Positions 3,456-61,543 of a stretch of 64,000 bases of DNA are shown in pieces; position 1 is the first letter of the stretch; each line of letters opens with the position of its first letter. Location: assembly GCA_951406725.2 (NCBI GenBank), contig OX597820.1, forward strand, positions 126,480,001-126,544,000. Reading direction: 5' to 3'. This DNA comes from Octopus vulgaris (lineage: Eukaryota). The notes beneath the pieces were generated by a model that was not told the DNA's origin, ran no database searches, and saw only the letters and a program-made list of their open reading frames with translations. Position numbers and translations under genes: made by a program.

Positions 3456-4735
3456 CTTTGGGGTACCCAAAAGTAACCAGAAACATTCTTTGTGGGGCAT
3501 TCCACTACTAGAAGCCACTTGATACGACAGTCAGGCACCAGTCTGCTGACCAGTGCCATCGAGTGAAGTCATACTGCCATGTGGTGCATCCTTCTTTTGC
3601 AGTGCTTCTCCCCTGTTCAATGATTTTTGCCAAAGCTGAAACAAAGGAACAGCATACTTCCATGAAATTCTATTTTCTGCTGGGGAAAATGGCAGCCGAA
3701 ACAGTCGTCATGCTTCAAACAGCTGACAAGGAAGCTACTATGAGCAAAGCACAAGTTTACAAGTGGTTTTCACATTTTAGGAATGGTCAGTTGTTGCTTG
3801 AAAGCCAACCTTGTTCAAGATGACGGTCGACCTCCCGAACAAATGAAAACATCACAAAAATTCATGAACTGGTCTTGGAGGGCTGTCGCTGAACAATTGA
3901 CGAACTTGTTGATATGACTGGTGTGTCCTGGAGCTCCTGTCAATGAAATTTGAGCAAGGAATTGCAAATGAAAAGAGTTGCAACAAAATTTGTGCCTCAC
4001 TTGCTCACAGAAGATCAAAATCAGTCAACTGAATGCGTGTCATGAACTAAAAGAACAGTTGACCTTTTTTGGAAGGTCATCACTGGTGATGAAAGCCGCT
4101 GCTATAGCTATGACCCTGAAATCAAGTCAGTGGAAGCATTCAATGTCACCATGCATAGAAAAAGGCATCAAGTGAAGCCCAATGTCAATACGATGCTGAT
4201 TTGTTTCATCGATGTGAAAGGAATCATCCCCACACAGGATTTGTTCCTCCTGGTCAAACTGTTAACCAGACATTTTACTTGGAAGTTCTGAAGCGATTGC
4301 GAGACGCGGTGACAGGAAAACGCCCCGACCAGTGGCAAGGTAGAGAGTGATGGTTCCATCACAACAAAGCACCTGCAACACTGCCTTGAGTGTGAGTGAG
4401 TTTTTGACCCAAAATGACATAATCCCATTTACCCACCCTCTCTATTCACCCGATCTTGCTCCTTGCGATTTTTTTTTTTTTGTTCCCCCAGTTGAAAATA
4501 CTCCTTAAAGGAAAACATTTTGCAGATATGGAAGAGATAAAAAAAAAACGACAGGGGCGTTAAAAGGTATCACTTCGCAAGAGTTCCAGGACTGCTTTGA
4601 ACAGTCGAAAATGTGTCTGGACTGTTGCATTGCTTCAAATGGAGAATACTTTGAAGGTGATAAAAGTGTAAACATGTAAGACTAAGTGAATAATATAATA
4701 TGGCAAAATTCTGGTTTCTTTTGGGTACCCACTTG
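3456..4735 (+). mobile_element. mariner element, full length but decayed
   Basis: TIRs (GGGTACCCAAAAGWAACCAGAA) flanked by TA; fragments EQHTSMKFYFLLGK..QVYKWFSHF, KFVPHLLT, TGDE, YSPDLAPCDF with stops and frameshifts. Confidence 0.9.
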
Positions 4736-7584: not shown

Positions 7585-7845
7585 AAACAATTGCAGCATG
7601 GAAGGTGTTTATAAGCCATTTAAGAAACACACAAAACCGTTAGATTGACTTCAACATTTAAATTTAATTTGTCAAAATATTTTCGTCGCTTTGAGACCGT
7701 GACCTGTTCACTGACAAAACTTCGTGCTGCATGAAGTTTTGTGTGTTTCTTAAATGGCTTATAAACACCTTCCACACTGCAATTGTTTTCATTCCAGCAC
7801 ACAATCTCAGATCAAGTCACTCGCTATGCAAGTACATCTCCGTAA
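7585..7845. mobile_element. Penelope-like inverted-repeat remnant inserted in the hAT element
   Basis: ~53-bp inverted arms (~7585-7637 / ~7736-7788) around a hammerhead-like spacer; a related, more decayed copy lies at ~9000-9300. Confidence 0.6.
7668..7718 (-). ncRNA. minimal type I hammerhead-like motif, G3-C8 core variant
   Basis: Minus strand TTTGTCA-GTGAACA-g-GTCAC ggtctcaaa GCGAC-GAAA-ATAT-TT-TGACAAA; 7-bp helix I; one extra G before stem II and one stem II mismatch. Confidence 0.6.
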
Positions 7846-8555
7846 TAAAAAATAAAGACAGCCAAAAAGTTATCAAAGAAGGCAGCGTTAACGATGTGAT
7901 AGTCATGTCACACCCAGTGCACACATATCCAAATCTCACAAACTGAGCAGCAAAAATGTGAGACTTGTGGAACTGGTGTCTAGCTTTTAAGATATAATCA
8001 GTATTTGCTTTGGAATTGCTGCATGCAACCAAGAGAATTCCTTTCAAAGTTTCCTCAGTTAACCTCGTTCGATGTGTTGACTTCACGTTCTTCCTTTTTG
8101 AAAATGTTTGCTCACAGACATAAGTTGTTCCAAGAACTGATGCCATACCAGAGGCAAATGAACTCCCATTACAGGTATTTACACAAAAGGTACAGTACAG
8201 TGGCAGGCTGGATGAAATAACCTCACAGTACAGATCCGGCCCATGGGCCATAGTTTGGTGACCCCTATCCTAAACACATACACACACACACACACATCAC
8301 ATGGACTTTCAAACTTCTTAGCACTATTTTTTTTTTTTTGCTTCTCTCTATTGGATACATTACTCAACCTTTATTTTGAACAATAGACTTACCTAGGAAT
8401 GTACATTAGGAAGAACTCTTTCGTGTGGGTCTGAATAAACCCCCTGTCTTCTTCCAGAACACAATAAGCTATAACAAGCCATGAACTTTCTGCTGCGCTA
8501 ATCATTTTTTACAACAAATGTTCCTGCCTATAATTTCCCACTTATATTTCTTATA

Positions 8556-8645: not shown

Positions 8646-9316
8646 CTATATTAATTCTACCTACATTGCATTACCATTAACTCTCTTCAATTAAACTAAA
8701 CAAATCTAAATGTCATAGTCCTGCCTTGATTAATTGTTTTGCTCTTATTTAACCTATTTCTAGGGACTCAAAGGTAAGATACTGATTGCCAGTTCTCTCC
8801 CACCTGGACATTTGTTCTACCCCAGCTTCAGCTCCAGCCCCTGTTTGAACTGGGATTCTAGTGGCTTGTCAACTGGAGCACTCTGACTGCATACCTCTAT
8901 TAGCTTTGGTTAACTTGACCTAAACTCCTCAACTCTGTGTGTTTGTGTGTGTGTGTGTATTTAGCAATTGTAGTATGGAAGACACAAGTTAGCAATTCAG
9001 AACCACATGGAAACAGTAAGCTTCAGTTAAACATCTATTTGTAATTTAGTGTCAGACTTTTTTCATTGTTCAAAACTGCAACCTGTTCACAGGTAAAAAG
9101 TTTTGCTGTATCTTTTGTCAGGTGAACTGGTCACAGTTTTGAATGAAGAAAATTTTAACAGTGTTACAAATAGATGTTTAAGTGAAGTTGGCAGTTTTTG
9201 TGTGTTTCCGAGTGGGTAACTTACATCTTCCAGCTGCAATCGCTTTAATTTCAGTAAGTGATTGCCGATCAAAACACTTACTATGCAAGTATATCTCTGT
9301 TATGTATATATATAGT

Positions 9317-21936: not shown

Positions 21937-22362
21937 CCCTTTCGTTACTGTTTTTTTATTTTGAGATGCTCAGTGTTTCTTTCAATTACTTTAACCCTTT
22001 CATTACCAACCCGGCTCTGGCTCTGTAGTACAAATGTCTTGTTTTCATAAGTTTTGAATTAAAATCTTCCACCAAACCTTAGTCACAATTTATGTTCCTA
22101 ACACCAGCTTAATGATAACGAAGTTTTTTTTACTAAATTCTTTCTTATATTTAAAGTAATTAAAAGAAACACACAGCATCTCAAAATAAATACAGTAACA
22201 AAAAGGTTAAATATAGCAACGAATTTAGTAAAATAACTTTGTTATCATTAAGCTACTGTTAGGAACACAAATTGTGACTAAAGTTTGGTGGAAGATTTTA
22301 ATTCAAAACTTATGAAAACAAGACATTTGTACTCAGATCCAGGGCTAGTTTCAGCGAAAGGG
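21937..22362. mobile_element. piggyBac-like MITE family A with an inverted copy of itself nested at 21995-22206
   Basis: TTAA at 21933, 21991, 22207 and 22363; outer halves rejoin to match 28494-28714. Confidence 0.85.
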
Positions 22363-23813
22363 TTAAAATGATAAGCTGCTAACAAACTCTCTCAATGCAA
22401 AAAGATAAGGAAATCTTTGTAGTGTTTTTGACCTGTTAGAAATAACTAAATCTCCTTTAACCCATTAGCACTCAGATTACTTTGTGAAATATAGGGTTTA
22501 CATATTCACATTGTTTTCAATTAATCATTTGGGTGCTTTTTATGTGCAGGTGGCACATAAAAAGCACCCACTACACTCACAGGGTAGTTGGTGTTAGGAA
22601 GGGCATCAAGCTGTAGAAACACTGCCAGATCAGACTGGAGCCTGGTACAGCCTTCTGGCTTCCTAGACCCCGGTCGAACCGTCCAACCCATGCTAGCATG
22701 GAAAACGGACGTTAAATGATGATGATGATGATGATGATGCATTATCTTGTAACTTCAAGATTTTGGTGATGTGATTGCATATTTTTAGAATGACAATGTA
22801 GGCTAGGTGTGAGAGGTGGTAAAGACAGGTAAAATATTTTGGTTGAATATGGCCAGCTTAAATGCTAATGGGTTAGACTGCTAGCAAACCCCCTCAAAGC
22901 ATATCTTAGATACACAAGAAGATAAGGAAACCTTTGAGCAATCCTTCGACCTGTTAGAAATAGCTAAATCTCCTGTAACTCTTTAACGTTCATTTTACTT
23001 TGTGAAATATAATGCTTATATATTCAAATTATTTTGAATTAATTATACATTAGCTCATAGTTTTGAGATTTTTATGATGTAATTGCTTATTTTTAGAATG
23101 ACATTGTAGGGTAGGTGTGAGAGGTGAGATCTAGTTGGTATGAGCATAAAAACAGGTAAAATATTTTGGCCAGAAGGAGCAGGTTGAAATGCTAAAAGAT
23201 TAAATCACACAATACTGTCTTTGCATGGAAAGAGACATTGAGTAATGTAGTCCTAGATACATTTAGCACCTCTGCCAATGCAGTTGATCTCTCAGACTTT
23301 CTTCCTCGTTGGCATGAAACAATATGGAAAGACTAAGAAGTACAGGTATGAGGTAAGAGAGAAGGGAAGGGTAAATGGACAGGTACACAGGTGTGTGTGT
23401 GTGTGTGAGGAGGTGATAACAATGTGCCAGTGAGAGAGTGAGAGCATGTGATATAAGGAGAGATTGGAGAAAGGATGATGACAGAATGATTGGGAGGAGA
23501 TGAAGAAGATTGAGAGAATCCCATGAAGTAGGAAGGAGAAAGAGAAAGGAAGATAAGATGTGTGTTTGAGGAAGAGAGAGAGTAAACTTCAGTGAGTGTG
23601 AGAGAATGAGAAACACTTTGAGAGAAAGAGAAAGAGAGAGAGAGAGGTGGAGCAGAATAAGTGAAAGATAGTATTGAAAAAGAGGATGTTTAACATGGAA
23701 TTTCCCCAAGACACTCTGATTCCAAGTGTGACCATCCTGACATATTTTTGGAGGTTTCTTTTATATTTTGTTTCAGTCATTGGATTGTGGTCATGCTGGA
23801 GCACTACTTTAAC

Positions 23814-28481: not shown

Positions 28482-29951
28482 TCAGGTCATTAACCCTTTC
28501 GTTACTGGATTTATTTTGAGATGCTCTGTGTTTCTTTCAATTATTTTAAAATATAACAAAGAATTTAGTAAAATAACTTAGTTATCATTAAGCTAGTTTT
28601 AGGAACATAAATTGTGACTAAGGTTTGGTGGAAGATTCTAATTCAAAACTTATGAAACAAGACATTTGTACTATAGAGCCAGAGCCGGTTTCAGCCGGGT
28701 TGATAACAAAAGGGTTAAGAATGAAATGTCTGGTTTTCTTATGCAACAAGTTTGACAGTCAGTAACTCTTATGTTTTATCCTGACAATTCTTTGTTTTAC
28801 CTCATTGAAGAATTACATCATCACTTTTCGAAATGCAATTCATGGTGTCTGATTCTATTTTGAGTTTTCTCTTGTAAATCAATTTTTGTGAACTCATGAA
28901 TAGATAAAAAATTTGTGTTGTTTATGAATATGAGTTCTGTCGTGGAACCAATGTGTCCCAGACAGCTCAAAACATCAAAGAGGTGTTTGGTGAAGATGTG
29001 GTGGATGAGTGCCCTTTACGTTGACAAGTTCCTGTCTGATGACTTTAGTTTTGAAAACCAGCCCTGTGGTAGACCTGAGACCAAGGTGGATAATGATGAG
29101 CTGGAAACTGTAGCGGAAGCACATATATCTCAAACTATGCATAAGTTAACAGCAATGTTTGATGTTTCGATTCCAACTGTATTGGACCATCTGAAACAAA
29201 TCAGCAAGGTAAAGAAGCTGGACAAGTGGGTACCACAAGAATTGAACAAACATTGTCTTGAAACTTGCTGTTCTTTGCTGTTGCAGCATAAAAGTGAACT
29301 ATTTTTGCATCATGCTGTTACGTGTGATGAAAAATAGATTCTTTTCAACAATAGCAAGCATTCTGCACGGTGGTTCAATAGAGACAAAGTGCCAAAACAA
29401 TCCCAAAAAGAATATTCACCAAAAAAAGTTAATGGTGTCTGTTTGGTGGTCTAGCACTGGTTTCATCAACTACAGCTTCATGAGACCTGATAAGTCGATT
29501 ACAGCGGATGTATACATCAACCAACTGGATGAAATGATGCGTGAACTTGCAAACTGAGATTGGTCAACAGAGACAGGCGGCCAATTCTCTTGCAAGACAA
29601 TGCTCGACCACATGTTGCACAAAGAATGCTACTCAAGTTACAGGAACTGAACTTGGAAGTTCTCCATTATCCACTTATTAACCAAACCTTCCACCGACTG
29701 ACTATCATGTTTTCCAGGCATTAGACAACTTTTTGCAATGAAAATACTTCAAATCTGAAGAAGATGCAAAAATAGCCTTTTGTGATTTCATTACCTCTTG
29801 CTCTCCAGAATTCTTTGCTGCCAACATAAATAAGCTACCGATAAAATGGCAGAATTGTGTGCATACTTTGATTAACTGCATTGCTTTTTGTTGAGATAGA
29901 ATAAAATAAACTCTCAGTTCAGAATTGAACATTTCATTCTTAATGACATGA
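28482..29951 (+). mobile_element. mariner element, decayed; left TIR split by a TTAA MITE
   Basis: KKLDKWVPQEL, VTCDEK, LQDNARPH, PTDYH motifs; right TIR acatttcattcttaatgacatga matches left TIR once 28494-28718 is removed. Confidence 0.9.
28494..28714. mobile_element. piggyBac-like MITE family A (~220 bp)
   Basis: TTAA|CCCTTTCGTTA...TAACAAAAGGG|TTAA. Confidence 0.85.
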
Positions 29952-30799
29952 TATATATATATATAGTATTTAATTAAGACTGAAATTGAGTGTTTGCCTC
30001 ACGATTCGAGTTTCACACTGATCTTCAGACAAAACTACAGTGGAGCTATATATATATATCATCATCATCATCATCGTTTAACGTCTGTTTTCCATGCTAG
30101 CATGGGTTGGACGGTTCGACCGGGATCTGGGAACCAGGAGGCTGTACCAGGCTCCAGTCGGATCTGGCAATGTTTCTGCAGCTGGATGCCCTTCCTAACA
30201 CCAACCACTCCATGAGTGTAGTGGGTGCTTTTTACATGCCACCGGCACAGGTGCCAGGCGAGGCTGGCAACAGCCATGATCGGTTGGTGCTTTTTATGTG
30301 CCACCGGCACAGAAGCCAGTCAAGGTGGCGCTGGCATCGACCGTGTACGGATGGTGCTTTTTACGTGCCACCAGCACAGGTGCCAGGGGAGGCTGGGAAC
30401 GGCTACGAACAGTTGGTGCTTTTTACATGCCACCGGCACAAGCCAGTCAAGGTGGCGCTGGCATCGACCATGTATGGATGGTGCTTTTTACGTGTTGCCT
30501 GCACAGGTGCCAGTGTAAGCTGGCAACGGCCACGATCGGTTGGTGCTTTTTACGTGCCACCAGCATGGATATATATATGGCTATTTTATTTTTCATTTTT
30601 GTTCTCTAAATATATGTATAGTACAAAAATAAAAGTAATGAAGATGAGGTAAAAAAAACAAAAGATAAATAGGGTATAAACAGTGTGATTAAATAAGCAT
30701 AATATTTGATATAGTAATCTGAATGTTAAAAGGGTTAATGTAATTTTTATTCTATATACATACATTTTATACATATACTTATTTTTGTTTCTCTTGTAG

Positions 30800-40630: not shown

Positions 40631-41972
40631 TCATCATCATCATCATCGTTTAGCGTCCGTTTTCCATGCTAGCATGGGTTGGACGGGTCAACTGGGGTCT
40701 GTGAAGCTGGAAGGCTTCGTCAGGCCCAGTCAGATCTGGCAGTGTTTCTACGGCTGGATGCCCTTCCTAACGCCAACCACTCCGCGAGTGTAGTGGGTGT
40801 TTTTTACGTGCCACCTGCACAGGTGCCAGACAGAGCTGGCGAACGGCCACGAATGGATGGTGCTTTTACGTGTCACCAGCACGGGGCCAGGCGATGCTGG
40901 CAACAGACACGGACGGATGGTGCTTTTACGTGCCACCGACACGGGGCCAGACAGAGCTGGCAAACGGCCACGAACGGATGGTGCTTTTATGTGTCACCGG
41001 CACGGGGGCCAGCCGAGGCTGGCAACGGACGCGAACAGATGGTGCTTTTACGTGCCACCGACACGGTTGCCAGACAGAGCTGGCAAACGGCCACGAGCGG
41101 ACGGTGCTTTTACGTGTCACCGGCACGGGGGCCAGCCGAGGCTGGCAACGGACACGGACGGATGGTGCTTTTACGTGCCACCGACACGGGGCCAGACAGA
41201 GCTGGCAAACGGCCACGAACGGATGGTGCTTTTACGTGCCACCGACACGGGGTCAGACAGAGCTGGCCAACGGCCACGAACGGACGGTGCTTTTACGTGT
41301 CACCGGCACGGGGCCAGGCGAGGCTGGCAACGAACACGAACGGATGGTGCTTTTACGTGCCACCGACACGGGGCCAGGCAGAGCTGGCAAACGGCCATGA
41401 GCGAATGGTGCTTTTACGTATCACCGGCACGGGTGCCAGACGAGGCTGACAGCGGACACGAACAGATGGGTCACTTAACCCCTGCTTTCTGATATATGAT
41501 TTGATTTTGATTGTTCTCACTGGTCTTGCCGGGTCTTCTCACGCACAGCATACTTCCATAGGTCTCGGTCTCTGGTCATTTCCTTGGTGAGACCTAGAGT
41601 TCGAAGGTCGTGCTTCACCACCTCGACCCAGGTTTTCCTGGGTCTACCTCTTCCACAGGTCCCCTCAACTGCCAGGGTGTGGCACTTTTTCACACACCTA
41701 TCTTCATCCATTCTCACCACATGACCATACCAGCGCAATCGTCTCTCTTGCACACAACATCTGATTCCTCTTAGGTCCAACTTTTCTCTCAAGGTACTTA
41801 CACTCTGTCGACTATGAACACTGACATTACACATCCAACGGAGCATACTAGCTTCATTTCTCGCGAGCTTACGCAAATCCTCAGCAGTCACGGCCCATGT
41901 TTCACTGCCATGTAGCATGGCTGTTCGTACACATGCATCATACAGTCTGCCTTTTACTCTGAGCGAGAGGCT
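40627..41972 (-). mobile_element. 5'-truncated RTE-type LINE with tandem-repeat 3' UTR and (ATG)n tail
   Basis: Open ORF 41517-41918 MLHGSETW..QERRLRWYGHVVRM..GRGRPRKTW; ~11 units of ~60 bp at 40800-41465; tail tgatgatga. Confidence 0.88.
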
Positions 41973-48352: not shown

Positions 48353-48737
48353 ATGAATGTATGTATGTATGTGTGTATGTGTATGTATGTGTGCATGCGT
48401 GCATACATGTGTGTGTTTGTGTGTCTATGTATGTATGTATATGTATGGTTTTAGATTGCAGTTAATGGCTCACATGGCCTTTAATTAGTTTAAGCACACA
48501 CAGTAATTTTAAAATCAAAAATTTTTATAAGTATTAAATCTTCTTAACGACCATTTTGATAATGGGTTAAAATCAATCATTCATCTCTGTGCAGACATAG
48601 ATCTATAAAAATATTCTTTTTAAAATAAATAAAACAATTTTATTACAGACTTCAATTGCACCAAAGGAAGCCACTTGGGTATCAACTAGTCTATATATGT
48701 GATGCTTGTATGTGTGTGCATGTATATATATAATACG

Positions 48738-48772
<35 letters not shown>

Positions 48773-49122
48773 TAGTTATCGCCATACTAATATGGCATTC
48801 TTATAAAAATAAGAATAAAGCTGTCCGCTTATTAGCTCCATGAGGCCATCGCCTTAAGTTAGCTATTTGATACACAAACTGTATCCATATAAGCGACACC
48901 CACTGGTCTGGCTACGCTGCATTGAAAAGGGGCAATACCCCGAAACGCGTCTGTAGCTGCCGGTCAAGTAGTGTGGAGCGACTGACCTCCCTTGTTCGAA
49001 GGTTATATGGATACAGTTTGTGTATCAAATAGCTAACTTAAGGCGATGGCCTCATGGAGCTAATAAGTGGACAGCTTTATTCTTATTTTTATAAGAATGC
49101 CATATTAGTATGGCGATAACTA
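48773..49122. repeat. 120-bp near-perfect inverted repeat (Penelope-like remnant)
   Basis: 48773-48892 vs 49003-49122, one mismatch seen; hammerhead in spacer; flanked by (TA)n. Confidence 0.9.
48916..48957 (+). ncRNA. minimal type I hammerhead, U3-A8 core variant
   Basis: GCTGCA-TTGAAAA-GGGGcaataCCCC-GAAA-CGCG-TC-TGTAGC; located in the spacer of a 120-bp inverted repeat. Confidence 0.75.
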
Positions 49123-49186
49123 TTATTTTCCGGGAACGCTGCCGTTGTTCTCTTTTAGAGAGACTTAGTAATTTTAATATTTCTAT

Positions 49187-49220
<34 letters not shown>

Positions 49221-49430
49221 TATATACATATATATATACATATATATATACAATTAAGGGTTTAGCAACGAATTGCCTCACCACACACCGAATTTAGATA
49301 TAGCAGTCAAAGAGTTATAGCTATTCTTTATACTAAAAGGGAGATCTCAGTAAAAACAGCACTTGAAAGGCAAACACAGACAGGTAAGAGAGAATGAAAT
49401 GACGGCAATCTATCATACAATTTTAAGTCA

Positions 49431-49521
49431 CCTACGGACGTACGTTTCGAAATTAAGTTTTAGGAATGCATAAGAATTAGATAATTATATCTTACCCAAC
49501 TTCTTTTCTCATCAGCGTAGG
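49431..49521 (-). ncRNA. type I hammerhead ribozyme, inverted copy
   Basis: Reverse complement of the same motif; substitutions only in stem II. Confidence 0.9.
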
Positions 49522-49615
49522 ACACTACAATTATGAATAATTGTATATTAAATTTCGAGATACTAGAAGGCATCATCTCAACTCAGTATCAGAGCGACAT
49601 TCATAATTGTAGTGT

Positions 49616-49706
49616 CCTACGCTGATGAGAAAAGAAGTTGGATAAGATATAATTATCTAATTCTTATGCTTTCCTAAAACTTAATTTCGAAACGTACGTC
49701 CGTAGG
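49616..49706 (+). ncRNA. type I hammerhead ribozyme (Penelope-type, palindromic helix III)
   Basis: CCTACG-CTGATGA-[gaaa...tttc long stem II]-GAAA-CGTACG-TC-CGTAGG; perfect 6-bp helix I; GUC site at 49698-49700. Confidence 0.9.
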
Positions 49707-50198
49707 TGACTTAAAATTGTATGATGGATTGCCGTCATTTCATTCTCTCTTACCTGTCTGTGTTTGCCTTTCAAGTGCTGTGTTTTTACTGAGATCTCCC
49801 TTTTAGTAGAAAGAATAGCTATAACTCTTTGACTGCTATTTCTAAATTCGGTGTATGGTGAGGCAATTCGTTGCTAAACCCTTAATTGCTTAGTATTACT
49901 TAAACTTTCCTCGAATGAGGCTTTTACATGCCGAAATCTACTTGGTGTAATTAATGATTATTCCAAATTAATTAATTTCACCCTATATTGTTACTGATAA
50001 CCATATTTCATCCCAGTAAATGACCACAGCATCTTGTCTTGGCTACACGCGGGTGGGAAGGGGTTGGTGACACAAACATTCATTCACACTTTGAATTTGG
50101 TGATACTGGTAATGGCTTTAGCTCGCTCTGAAACTGAGTTGAGATGATGCCTTCTAGTATCTCGAAATTTAATATACAATTATTCATAATTGTAGTGT

Positions 50199-50289
50199 CC
50201 TACGCTGATGAGAAAAGAAGTTGGATAAGATATAATTATCTAATTCTTATGCTTTCCTAAAACTTAATTTCGAAACGTACGTCCGTAGG
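50199..50289 (+). ncRNA. type I hammerhead ribozyme, tandem copy
   Basis: Same sequence as 49616-49706, offset 583 nt; GUC site at 50281-50283. Confidence 0.9.
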
Positions 50290-50585
50290 TGACTTAAAAT
50301 TGTATGATAGATTGCCGTCATTTCATTCTCTCTTACCTGTCTGTGTTTGCCTTTCAAGTGCTGTGTTTTTACTGAGATCTCCCTTTTAGTAGAAAGAATA
50401 GCTATAACTCTTTGACTGCTATTTCTAAATTCGGTGTGTGGTGAGGCAATTCGTTGCTAAATCCTTAATTGCTTAGTATTACTTAAACTTTCCTCGAATG
50501 AGGCTTTTACATGCCGAAATCTACTTGGTGTAATTAATGATTATTCCAAATTAATTAATTTCACCCTATATTGTTACTGATAACC

Positions 50586-50667
<82 letters not shown>

Positions 50668-50974
50668 GGAACACTCCTGTCACAACCTAGGACCTTGAAG
50701 ACTGCTTAAATGCAAGAAAGTATACCAGTCCCTTAATATTTGATATTCAGCATTTCATCTATTCAATAAGACAACCAATACTTTATTTCATTTTACTATA
50801 TCTATACTATTTATACTATATATTCAATATTCTACATTAATATTACAAAGAATATAAATAAAACATAAAAAACAGAGTTGGAATTTCTTTGAATAATATA
50901 TATCCCTCTATACACAATCATACAAACCCCTTTATATATACATATATATATACATATATATATATATATCATTT

Positions 50975-51345
50975 CATTTTCATTTAATTTCATCTAGTTT
51001 CAATTCACGAGCTGTGGCCATGCTGGGGCACCGCCATTCGGTGTTGCTACATGATTTTACTTCACGAATGCTTTTTAGCAATTGACATTTGGTGCATGAG
51101 AGAGTTTGATGCAGCTACCCTCATCTGCACCTCCTGCTGTGAAGTTGGTTCATCTGGGAGACCTGACAGGAAGAGGTCCAGCTTTATTTTGAAGACATCT
51201 GCATTCACCCCATGCAGGTCTCTCAGGTCCTTCGGGAGGATATTGAAGAGCTGTGGACCTCTGAAGCTCAGGCTATCGCAGTATCTTGTCCTACATCTTG
51301 ATGGCAAATTTGGAGTCCTTGGCACTATGCAGTGGCGCCCAGTTC
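50975..51345 (-). mobile_element. CR1/L2-group LINE 3' end
   Basis: SLSFRGPQLFNILPKDLRDLHGVNADVFKIKLDLFLSGLPDEP followed by short 3' UTR stem and A-rich tail. Confidence 0.75.
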
Positions 51346-51932
51346 TCTTTCTCTATATATATATTATATATATTATTCTTAAGCAAGAATGTTGTTGACA
51401 GTCACTTCAAAGTTTTAGCCAACTAAGCTATCATCAGACTGCATGTGTGTATGTGTGTGTGAGCGAATGATTGTATGTGTATATATGTTGTCTTAAAACA
51501 GTGTCAGCATTTCTCAATCAATCTTTATATCCTTTCCAAAATTTGCATAGAAAATCAAATACCAGTTCTGAATAATGTATGAAAATTAAATAATTTTTTT
51601 TTAAAATATCAGACCCAAAATCTCACAAGAGTAAAACATGGAAGACTCAAGAAAAGGACTTGTGAAAGACTGATACCAGTGAAATGGTAGAAGAGTTGGT
51701 GTGGTAACATGAGGTACAGAAACACTATCAGTTTATGTAATCTAAAACCTCATTCACTTGTTTTACACTTTCAATTTTCTTCAACACCGCCTTCTCTCTC
51801 TGGAAAATATTCACAATTTTCTCCAAGACATTTCCAGCATTAGATGTAGTCAGATAAGAGTTCCTGTCACCTCATCCAACTACTGGTAGTATAGTTAACA
51901 AAAATGATGATACTGATGATGTTAATCATTAT

Positions 51933-52584: not shown

Positions 52585-52686
52585 ATATGTATAAGGTTAC
52601 TGATAATGGTTCTTTTAACATACCAAACTACTTGGTAAAATTATTAATTATTAATTGATTAATTAATTTTACCCTTTTTATTATTG

Positions 52687-52725
<39 letters not shown>

Positions 52726-59898: not shown

Positions 59899-60020
59899 TA
59901 TTATTCTTATATTAGAATGTTGTTGATAGTAACTTCAAAATTCCAGCCAGCTTAGCCATCATCAGATTGCTAGCTGAAACTTCGAAGTCACTATCAGCAA
60001 CATTCTAGTATAAGAATAAT
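59899..60020. repeat. inverted repeat with hammerhead half-motifs (Penelope-like)
   Basis: ~52-bp arms; GAAACTTCGAAGTC on + and CTGATGA on -; related degenerate copy at ~51384-51442 (-). Confidence 0.6.
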
Positions 60021-60107
60021 AAATTTGTACACCACAAACATATAGAGTAACCCGTCAGATTAAAGTAAAACTATTTTTATTATAACTGAATGTAAAAACA
60101 AACATTA

Positions 60108-60150
<43 letters not shown>

Positions 60151-60196
60151 TGTGTGAATAGAAATAGAAAGTCTTTGGTGCAGTATTATAATTTGA

Positions 60197-60350
60197 GAAA
60201 ATGAATAGAAATGGTTTTCCTGATAATTTTTCCACTTTAGTAATTAGACGTTTATGAATTATTAGGTGTTTACAAATCATTTAATAATTTATAAACGTCT
60301 AATTATTAAAGTGGAAAAATTATCAGAAAAGCCATTTCTATTTATTGTTT
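60197..60350. repeat. ~67-bp imperfect inverted repeat
   Basis: tagaaatgg..tgataatttttccacttta..taattagacgtttat mirrored at 60283-60350. Confidence 0.75.
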
Positions 60351-60379
60351 CAAATACATCTATATTCTTTCTTATTTTT

Positions 60380-61312: not shown

Positions 61313-61543
61313 TATATAAATACAATGTACATTTAAACACATAAGAAGCATCCATCATAGGACTCCTTGCACGCTAGAGAGAGCAGTTAAATTCCAAACC
61401 ACTAGATGATAAATGTTTTTATTTTTCATTCCCTTCGAAATTTTATCCTTAATAGTGGTTTGGAATTTAACTGTTCTCTCTAGCATGCAAGGAGTCCTAT
61501 GATAGATCGCTCTTATATATTTAAATGTACACTGTATTTATAT
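61313..61543. repeat. ~90-bp imperfect inverted repeat, related to hammerhead-bearing element at ~57330-57680
   Basis: Arms 61313-61404 / 61453-61543; shares atttaaacacataag..ataggA..cacgctaga with 57437-57490. Confidence 0.75.

Follow-up and report, generated by a model that had tools for sequence, protein, structure and literature searches.

The cassette between two (TA)n tracts in this stretch of Octopus vulgaris DNA carries three hammerhead ribozyme motifs, two in tandem and one inverted, and raises the question of what kind of element leaves such an arrangement behind. The original prediction set a truncated Penelope-like element (PLE) against an independent retrozyme. This opposition is not clear-cut, as a recent preprint argues that animal retrozymes are themselves PLEs of non-autonomous origin (Li, Clavereau & Pollet, 2026; bioRxiv 10.64898/2026.07.22.740005). 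The cassette is probably a single insertion, into (TA)n, of a multi-copy, non-coding 583-nt unit with a type I hammerhead, which likely represents a non-autonomous PLE of the animal non-LTR retrozyme kind; the enzyme of another element likely made the copy by reverse transcription of a tandem or circular RNA. The window, meaning the whole 64-kb stretch that was analysed, is AT-rich and holds many SINE-like repeats, MITE-like hairpins and DNA-transposon remnants.

Scanning the window on both strands with a type I hammerhead descriptor, against 200 Markov-1 simulations as the null, gave three canonical motifs at the predicted positions (Table 1), with cores at 49622(+), 50205(+) and 49515(−). 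The chance rate is 0.005 hits per simulated window, and 0 when a palindromic helix III and a 6-bp helix I are required. All three motifs have the core CUGANGA / GAAA / UH, helices I–III and an open helix I. Each comprises a 6-bp helix I followed by a small internal loop and a 4-bp helix II domain of 60 nt in all; helix III is the palindrome ACGTACGT, and its palindromic character had been correctly anticipated. The two sense motifs are identical, and the third differs from them at two places, both in the helix II cap. A helix I of 6 bp and a helix II of 4 bp are canonical metazoan dimensions; what had been read as an unusually long stem II of ~60 nt proves to be a helix of only 4 bp, capped by 52 nt of structured sequence. 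Such a cap is not unprecedented, because plant PLE motifs described in the available part of Craig et al. (2021; PMC8557442) have loops of ~30–35 nt. Rfam gave no hammerhead match, either in the window at the gathering score or in 48500–51500 at E ≤ 10; the long cap and the missing helix III are a likely reason.

Table 1. Positions of the cassette features in the window.
Feature	Position	Strand	Basis and remarks
Left (TA)n tract	49187..49250	.	TRF period 2, 32 copies; insertion target
Inverted 5′-truncated copy, 347 nt	49251..49597	-	Alignment; reverse complement of 50123-50471; blastn 97.7% over 349 nt
Hammerhead motif 3	49431..49521	-	Descriptor scan; predicted cut after 49437
First direct copy, 5′-truncated, 408 nt, 0.7 unit	49599..50006	+	blastn
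Hammerhead motif 1	49616..49706	+	Descriptor scan; predicted cut after 49700
Predicted cut-to-cut monomer, 583 nt, 36% G+C	49701..50283	+	Folding prediction; stable as circle or line
One complete 583-nt unit	50007..50589	+	Junction 50006/50007 bridged by diverged contigs in public runs
Spacer, 175 nt, single sense-orientation copy, non-coding	50007..50181	+	Includes hairpin 50091-50172 and the 5′ arm of hairpin 50175-50194
Hammerhead motif 2	50199..50289	+	Descriptor scan; predicted cut after 50283
Helix II domain	50212..50271	+	4-bp helix, 50212-15 with 50268-71, capped by 52 nt
118-nt 'tail', missing from the inverted arm	50472..50589	+	Ends in ATAT, merging with the (TA)n target
Right (TA)n tract	50586..50664	.	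TRF period 2, 39.5 copies

Read in ribozyme sense, the insertion consists of the inverted piece, the 0.7 unit and the full unit, so that 1.7 direct units stand head to tail with two complete hammerhead motifs one unit apart. The direct repeat, 49599–50006 against 50182–50589 at a spacing of 583, has three mismatches in 408 nt (49726, 49855 and 49879), which agrees with the proposed ribozyme-to-ribozyme unit and with a young copy. The inverted arm, measured at 347 nt where ~345 bp had been estimated, differs from 50123–50471 by a 2-nt gap and six substitutions. It is 118 nt shorter than the direct copies at the 3′-end, and it includes 59 nt of the non-repeated spacer. A single extra base (49598) separates the arm from the first direct copy, which begins in the loop region of the equivalent of the 50175–50194 hairpin. 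With (TA)n on both sides and the ATAT overlap at the 3′-end, the cassette fits a microsatellite target without a discernible TSD. Its partial tandem (pLTR) and inverted 5′-truncated copy are the features of a PLE insertion. In the typical PLE layout set out by Craig et al. (2021; PMC8557442), a partial tandem is headed at the 5′-end by an inverted 5′-truncated copy, one end carries a tail, and insertion is biased towards microsatellites. The suspected kinship with Penelope elements and retrozymes is supported. TRF at the settings of the preprint did not call the locus as a tandem.

The left (TA)n tract also borders a neighbouring element (48769–49186), an unrelated second insertion of the same layout between (TA)n tracts. 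Its inverted arm (48769–48892, 124 nt) has two mismatches to 49003–49126, and its direct body extends 60 nt beyond the arm. It carries a hammerhead-like motif at ~48909–48959 with good helices I and II and the palindrome ACGCGT; the 5′ core reads CTGCATTGAAAA in place of CTGANGA, which would make it a decayed copy or a core variant. Downstream, a ~77% diverged 3′-end fragment of the same or a sister family lies at 52607–52688 and is followed by (TA)n. Elsewhere in the window, MITE-like hairpin elements are found at 7585–7788, 8963–9244, 21990–22367, 59899–60021, 60191–60355 and 61314–61543, and the descriptor scan detected no hammerhead motif in any of the six. Transposase remnants of Tc1/mariner (HTH_48, Transposase_1) and hAT (weak) type occur at 3512–3820, 29246–29554 and 7820–8269(−), and ~61-nt tandem repeats attached to a dispersed SINE-like family at 40802–41469 and 30224–30568.

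As originally supposed, the cassette has no evident coding capacity: no ORF of at least 100 aa overlaps it. Pfam comparison covered 72 reading frames of the window, namely 70 of the 86 frames of at least 100 aa (the other 16 lie in simple or tandem repeats) and two spacer frames. None of the 72 matched a reverse transcriptase (RT) or GIY-YIG domain, and the spacer frames had no Pfam match at all. Neither a tRNA gene nor a B-box-like motif was detected in the unit. A pattern scan of metagenomes returned three matches, none with helix I or blastn similarity and all attributable to chance, and viral contigs returned 0. Two short unit motifs had no match in the Craig et al. supplement (PMC8557442). 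Among candidate relatives, Hydra-1_Obim was rejected as a parent since its hammerhead differs, the comparison covering the hammerhead and the first part of its consensus. Naiad was rejected as a mobiliser: its target is compatible, but Naiads lack canonical hammerheads according to the portion of PMC8557442 at hand. That source also links Neptune to microsatellite bias. By analogy, (TA)n targeting combined with a canonical hammerhead would fit the Hydra clade as mobiliser, as far as the available descriptions of that clade extend. The family is not described in the literature searched, and it may already be catalogued in Repbase, Dfam or the supplements of several papers, which lie beyond that search.

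Part of the unit is present in 20 of the 24 public sequencing runs listed, under four coded organism labels, and no RNA run is named among them. The family evidence is drawn from four runs under two labels, whose contigs were mapped on one permuted unit (49840–50422). Contigs cover 30 of 30 bins in each of the four runs (1922, 1232, 153 and 111 contigs) and are of mixed identity, so the unit forms a family of many diverged copies, found with at least two of the coded organism labels. Summed contig depth in the DNA runs, 10^4 to 10^6, is not a measure of copy number. The junction 50006/50007 is bridged by at least 31 nt per side in 5 of the 32 pieces listed (there are 3416 further pieces), namely records 10, 11, 26, 27 and 28, each with 3–12 other letters. 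All five come from runs guessed to be RNA (X8 and X11) and are not taken as a sign of expression. In the two DNA runs the listed pieces cross the junction by at most 14 nt (X3 record 19), and variant rows imply 12–23 nt.

This junction bears on the possibility that the cassette is an ordinary 5′-truncated, partial-tandem insertion of an autonomous, ORF-bearing PLE whose 583-nt spacing records nothing but a local stop of reverse transcription. The layout is standard for autonomous PLEs in the available text of Craig et al. (2021; PMC8557442). X3 record 22 departs from the unit upstream of 50057 for 323 nt and could be an ORF-bearing relative, and the junction evidence stems from the 32 pieces listed. 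Such an origin nevertheless seems unlikely, given that the same junction appears in five diverged contigs and that the three bridging pieces of run X8 contribute 266.4 of the 293.5 depth (91%) at 50009. The one loose end before 50009, among those listed, corresponds to the 3′-end of the unit itself in variant form, the spacer frames resemble no Pfam domain, and the predicted fold described below requires spacer and repeat together. On balance, the contig sequences point to the junction as a family trait, which is predicted by an ORF-less derivative and not by a locally truncated autonomous element. X8 record 25 departs from the unit for ~557 nt upstream of 49894; together with X3 record 22 it might offer a route to the autonomous partner, or the two may simply mark insertion sites.

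The 3′-ends of the unit are also shared. Of 24 loose ends listed (176 further), three lead into (TA)n after 49884, 49995 and 49999 respectively, and at 49892 there is a joint with intervening (TA)n. Two 3′-ends in (TA)n, the same two as in the window, recur in other copies, 110–118 nt apart. The pieces listed from the four runs include no array of two or more full units, and no joint among those listed matches the splice-like AG sites at 50356 and 50388. The listed joints and ends likewise include neither a change of strand nor a clustering at the cut site, features that contigs are unable to reveal. Contig cover is deepest over 49860–49960, where loose ends belonging to other upstream sequences also occur, so that several families may share the unit's 3′-end. 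It is highly improbable that the assembly of a high-copy repeat went wrong here and created the three-copy layout. PLE insertions do trouble short-read assemblies (PMC8557442, available part), and no listed contig piece spans even the 583-nt stretch, the contig evidence covering the unit itself. The copies differ at private sites, however, the unit junction is found in independent runs, and the layout follows the published pattern and recurs in the unrelated neighbour.

Folded as a circle, the predicted monomer reaches −149.9 kcal/mol with 60% of its bases paired (z = −5.5; 0 of 60 shuffles as low). By strand, z is −5.2 for the ribozyme strand and −2.0 for the opposite strand. The 408-nt repeat alone (z = −1.5) and the spacer alone (z = −1.9) fold weakly because a predicted long-range helix joins 49744–49782 to 50025–50063. 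Background folding gives z ≤ −5 in 2 of 12 windows and −3.5 to −4.3 in 2 more. In the monomer, the cap strand 50250–50256 is predicted to pair with 50272–50279, the GAAA/helix III strand, and thereby to keep the ribozyme inactive; the active fold is placed 5.1 kcal/mol above the monomer's best fold. The inverted copy carries a substitution in this cap strand, at the equivalent of 50253.

The idea that the tandem copies swap helix III strands is supported in part by folding models. When the direct part alone is transcribed, a swapped dimer is sterically nested and gains 3.3 kcal/mol over two monomer folds, yet it lies 7.8 kcal/mol above the free fold, with a swapped-pair probability of 0.001 in the direct-only transcript. 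Once the inverted arm is included, the arm can pair over either sense copy, in line with the proposed block on folding, and the dimer fold costs ~196 kcal/mol. In these models, whose scope leaves tertiary contacts and proteins outside, cleavage is predicted to be slow or assisted, and RNA reading through this cassette copy from the left is predicted not to release a monomer.

In its strong form, the original idea would have the locus itself free a 583-nt circle through the swapped dimer, with the inverted arm regulating release. The nested dimer and the ability of the arm to pair over either sense copy would suit such a scheme, but the folding costs weigh heavily on it, with or without the arm, and make it very unlikely. 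The start sites open to a productive transcript would in addition be limited to a short interval immediately upstream of 49616, and the 175 nt that should precede the first copy are missing from it. This cassette copy is likely a poor source of circles because read-through RNA from the left would form a ~300 bp duplex over one of the two sense hammerheads. Nor is the third hammerhead evidence of a designed regulator: PLE insertion is known to leave inverted arms with hammerheads on the opposite strand (PMC8557442, Figure 2 legend and File S2; PMC4209133), and the neighbouring element has an inverted arm of its own. In File S2, Penelope-13_HM has an inverted copy with hammerheads on both strands, and opposite-strand hammerhead pairs 100–700 bp apart are reported in the accessible portion of Cervera & De la Pena (2014; PMC4209133). 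The 50283-to-49701 junction, once suggested as a test for the circle, cannot tell circle from genome, because the sequence from 50284 onward equals that from 49701 onward.

The preferred reading, a reverse-transcribed non-autonomous unit, can also be examined in the variants of the family, of which the best-supported 40 of 96 were analysed. Twenty-four lie at unpaired sites and 16 in predicted pairs, where 12 keep the pair and 4 break it. The null expectation is 9.7 ± 2.2 breaks (P about 0.006), and pair-keeping at stricter pair probabilities gives P values of 0.005–0.03 for the plus strand and 0.04–0.14 for the minus strand, all of which overstate independence because variants are linked in subfamilies. 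Two compensatory pairs are each found on shared contigs. One (50181/50188) lies in the hairpin 50175–50194 before helix I and has equal depth and contig count in X8 and X11; the other (50214/50269) lies in helix II (X11, 13.1, equal to records 13 and 14 together). The ribozyme variants listed comprise a helix I wobble and cap changes, and core changes are confined to N7 and U4. U4 (50206, 49623) is C at 12–46% of depth in all four runs, often together with the helix I wobble variant at 50202. The core of a viroid hammerhead tolerates such a U4-to-C change.

A minority allele at 50225 is common to both direct copies and absent from the inverted arm. At this one site, the pattern fits one template read 1.7 times with a second template for the arm, and it also fits later conversion. 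The allele would equally suit duplication or conversion after insertion, as expected if the unit derives from a PLE terminus and now spreads mainly at the DNA level by local duplication and unequal crossover, with a largely vestigial ribozyme and no circle. DNA-level spread is proposed as a route in the available part of the preprint (bioRxiv 10.64898/2026.07.22.740005), U4C is common, and the predicted fold is inactive. We regard this account as quite unlikely, since the inverted truncated head and the recurrence of 3′-ends in (TA)n speak for retrotransposition. Fold and variant pattern alike are more pronounced on the ribozyme strand, and a compensatory change falls within helix II.

Animal non-LTR retrozymes were defined by Cervera & de la Pena (2020; PMC7229834), in whose available sections units of 150–450 bp are given, retrozyme circles are reported in coral, mussel and axolotl, and PLEs are named as likely mobilisers. 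Like them, the cassette family has a non-coding head-to-tail unit in multiple copies, with one type I hammerhead per unit, a 6-bp helix I, a 4-bp helix II, a weak palindromic helix III, G+C under 50% and a predicted self-paired monomer. At 583 nt the unit exceeds the older range and falls inside the 51–972 bp of the preprint, as far as its available text goes. Unlike animal retrozymes, the cassette has 1.7 units and a 52-nt helix II cap, its circles and cleavage being predicted. Unlike most metazoan retrozyme circles, which are predicted to leave the ribozyme free (PMC7229834, in part), its monomer is predicted to hold the ribozyme inactive. In the available text of these sources, retrozymes are not said to have an inverted head, two fixed 3′-ends or a (TA)n target. 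Judged from sequence, the cassette would share most testable features of retrozymes, with strict membership limited by the 1.7 units and by the predicted status of circles and cleavage. For comparison, of the nine Xenopus dimers assayed in the preprint one cleaved and eight did not, and PLE ribozymes are described as of low activity, dimers included, in the accessible part of PMC4209133.

The likeness to canonical EN+ PLEs, within the published descriptions available, lies in the partial tandem, the inverted 5′-truncated copy, the one-end tail and the (TA)n target. It is closest for (TA)n-inserting, hammerhead-bearing clades such as Hydra, where the hammerhead also lies a few hundred bases from the 3′-end. 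Unlike autonomous PLEs, the cassette lacks an RT/GIY-YIG ORF; its tail is 118 nt, compared with 30–40 nt in the available part of PMC8557442, and its ribozyme is of the canonical 6/4-bp type and not the minimal PLE type. The hammerhead matches neither Hydra-1_Obim nor any row of the portion of File S2 at hand. Non-autonomous PLEs with head-to-tail insertions are known from Chlamydomonas in the available parts of PMC8557442 and PMC9977147. The cassette resembles such Chlamys elements, for example MRC1, as an ORF-less passenger with pLTRs and head-to-tail insertion in microsatellites. Unlike the cassette, however, MRC1-type elements are green algal, and most Chlamys elements are without a detected canonical hammerhead in that source (PMC8557442).

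A non-autonomous PLE derivative is the likely identity of the unit because it is family-wide, its ends recur in (TA)n, its ribozyme strand folds stably, and its variants mostly keep pairing. Its insertion could have proceeded as follows. A tandem array of the unit elsewhere in the genome would be transcribed, and cleavage by the hammerheads would probably be slow and depend on swapped dimers or on help from a protein, because the monomer is predicted to misfold. Cut monomers could then be ligated into 583-nt circles. A PLE RT/GIY-YIG protein acting in trans would nick both (TA)n strands, and reverse transcription would start at two internal sites ~118 nt apart. Frangieh et al. (2024; PMC11167929) describe a PLE protein by which AT-rich DNA is nicked on both strands and each strand extended; in their system two internal RNA start sites set the tail, and the PAc hammerhead needs protein to cut and is dispensable for in vitro insertion. 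The longer cDNA, of 991 nt, would extend over the unit junction and the two cut sites, which leaves either an uncut multimer or a ligated circle as its template, at about even odds. The shorter cDNA, of 347 nt, would be primed on the other strand and joined head to head, giving the inverted arm and the third hammerhead. By analogy with PLE insertions, the arm is best read as an insertion by-product.

A more specific version is possible, although we would sooner doubt it: a 583-nt RNA circle may have been copied more than once round by a PLE RT from two fixed starts, with the cap strand 50250–50256 acting as a switch that protects the monomer circle from cleavage until it is refolded by the PLE protein or by a second unit. 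If true, this would tie the rolling-circle model of retrozymes to the twin-start mechanism of PLEs and explain how circles survive their own ribozyme.

The link between PLEs and retrozymes has so far been drawn from co-occurrence and pLTR homology, mainly in vertebrates, and the mechanism is listed as open by the authors in the available part of the preprint (bioRxiv 10.64898/2026.07.22.740005). The cassette family combines a retrozyme-type unit with a PLE footprint, that is, an inverted head, staggered ends and a (TA)n target, and the link is therefore testable within it. Such families may be undercounted, because the cap probably keeps Rfam from recognising the motif, and a TRF-based pipeline overlooks a layout of 1.7 units. 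PLE-mobilised retrozymes are already a published hypothesis, and the cassette likely represents a new family of known animal retrozymes, not a new class of element. What it adds is the 583-nt unit as a family trait, the PLE insertion footprint and a candidate inhibitory cap.
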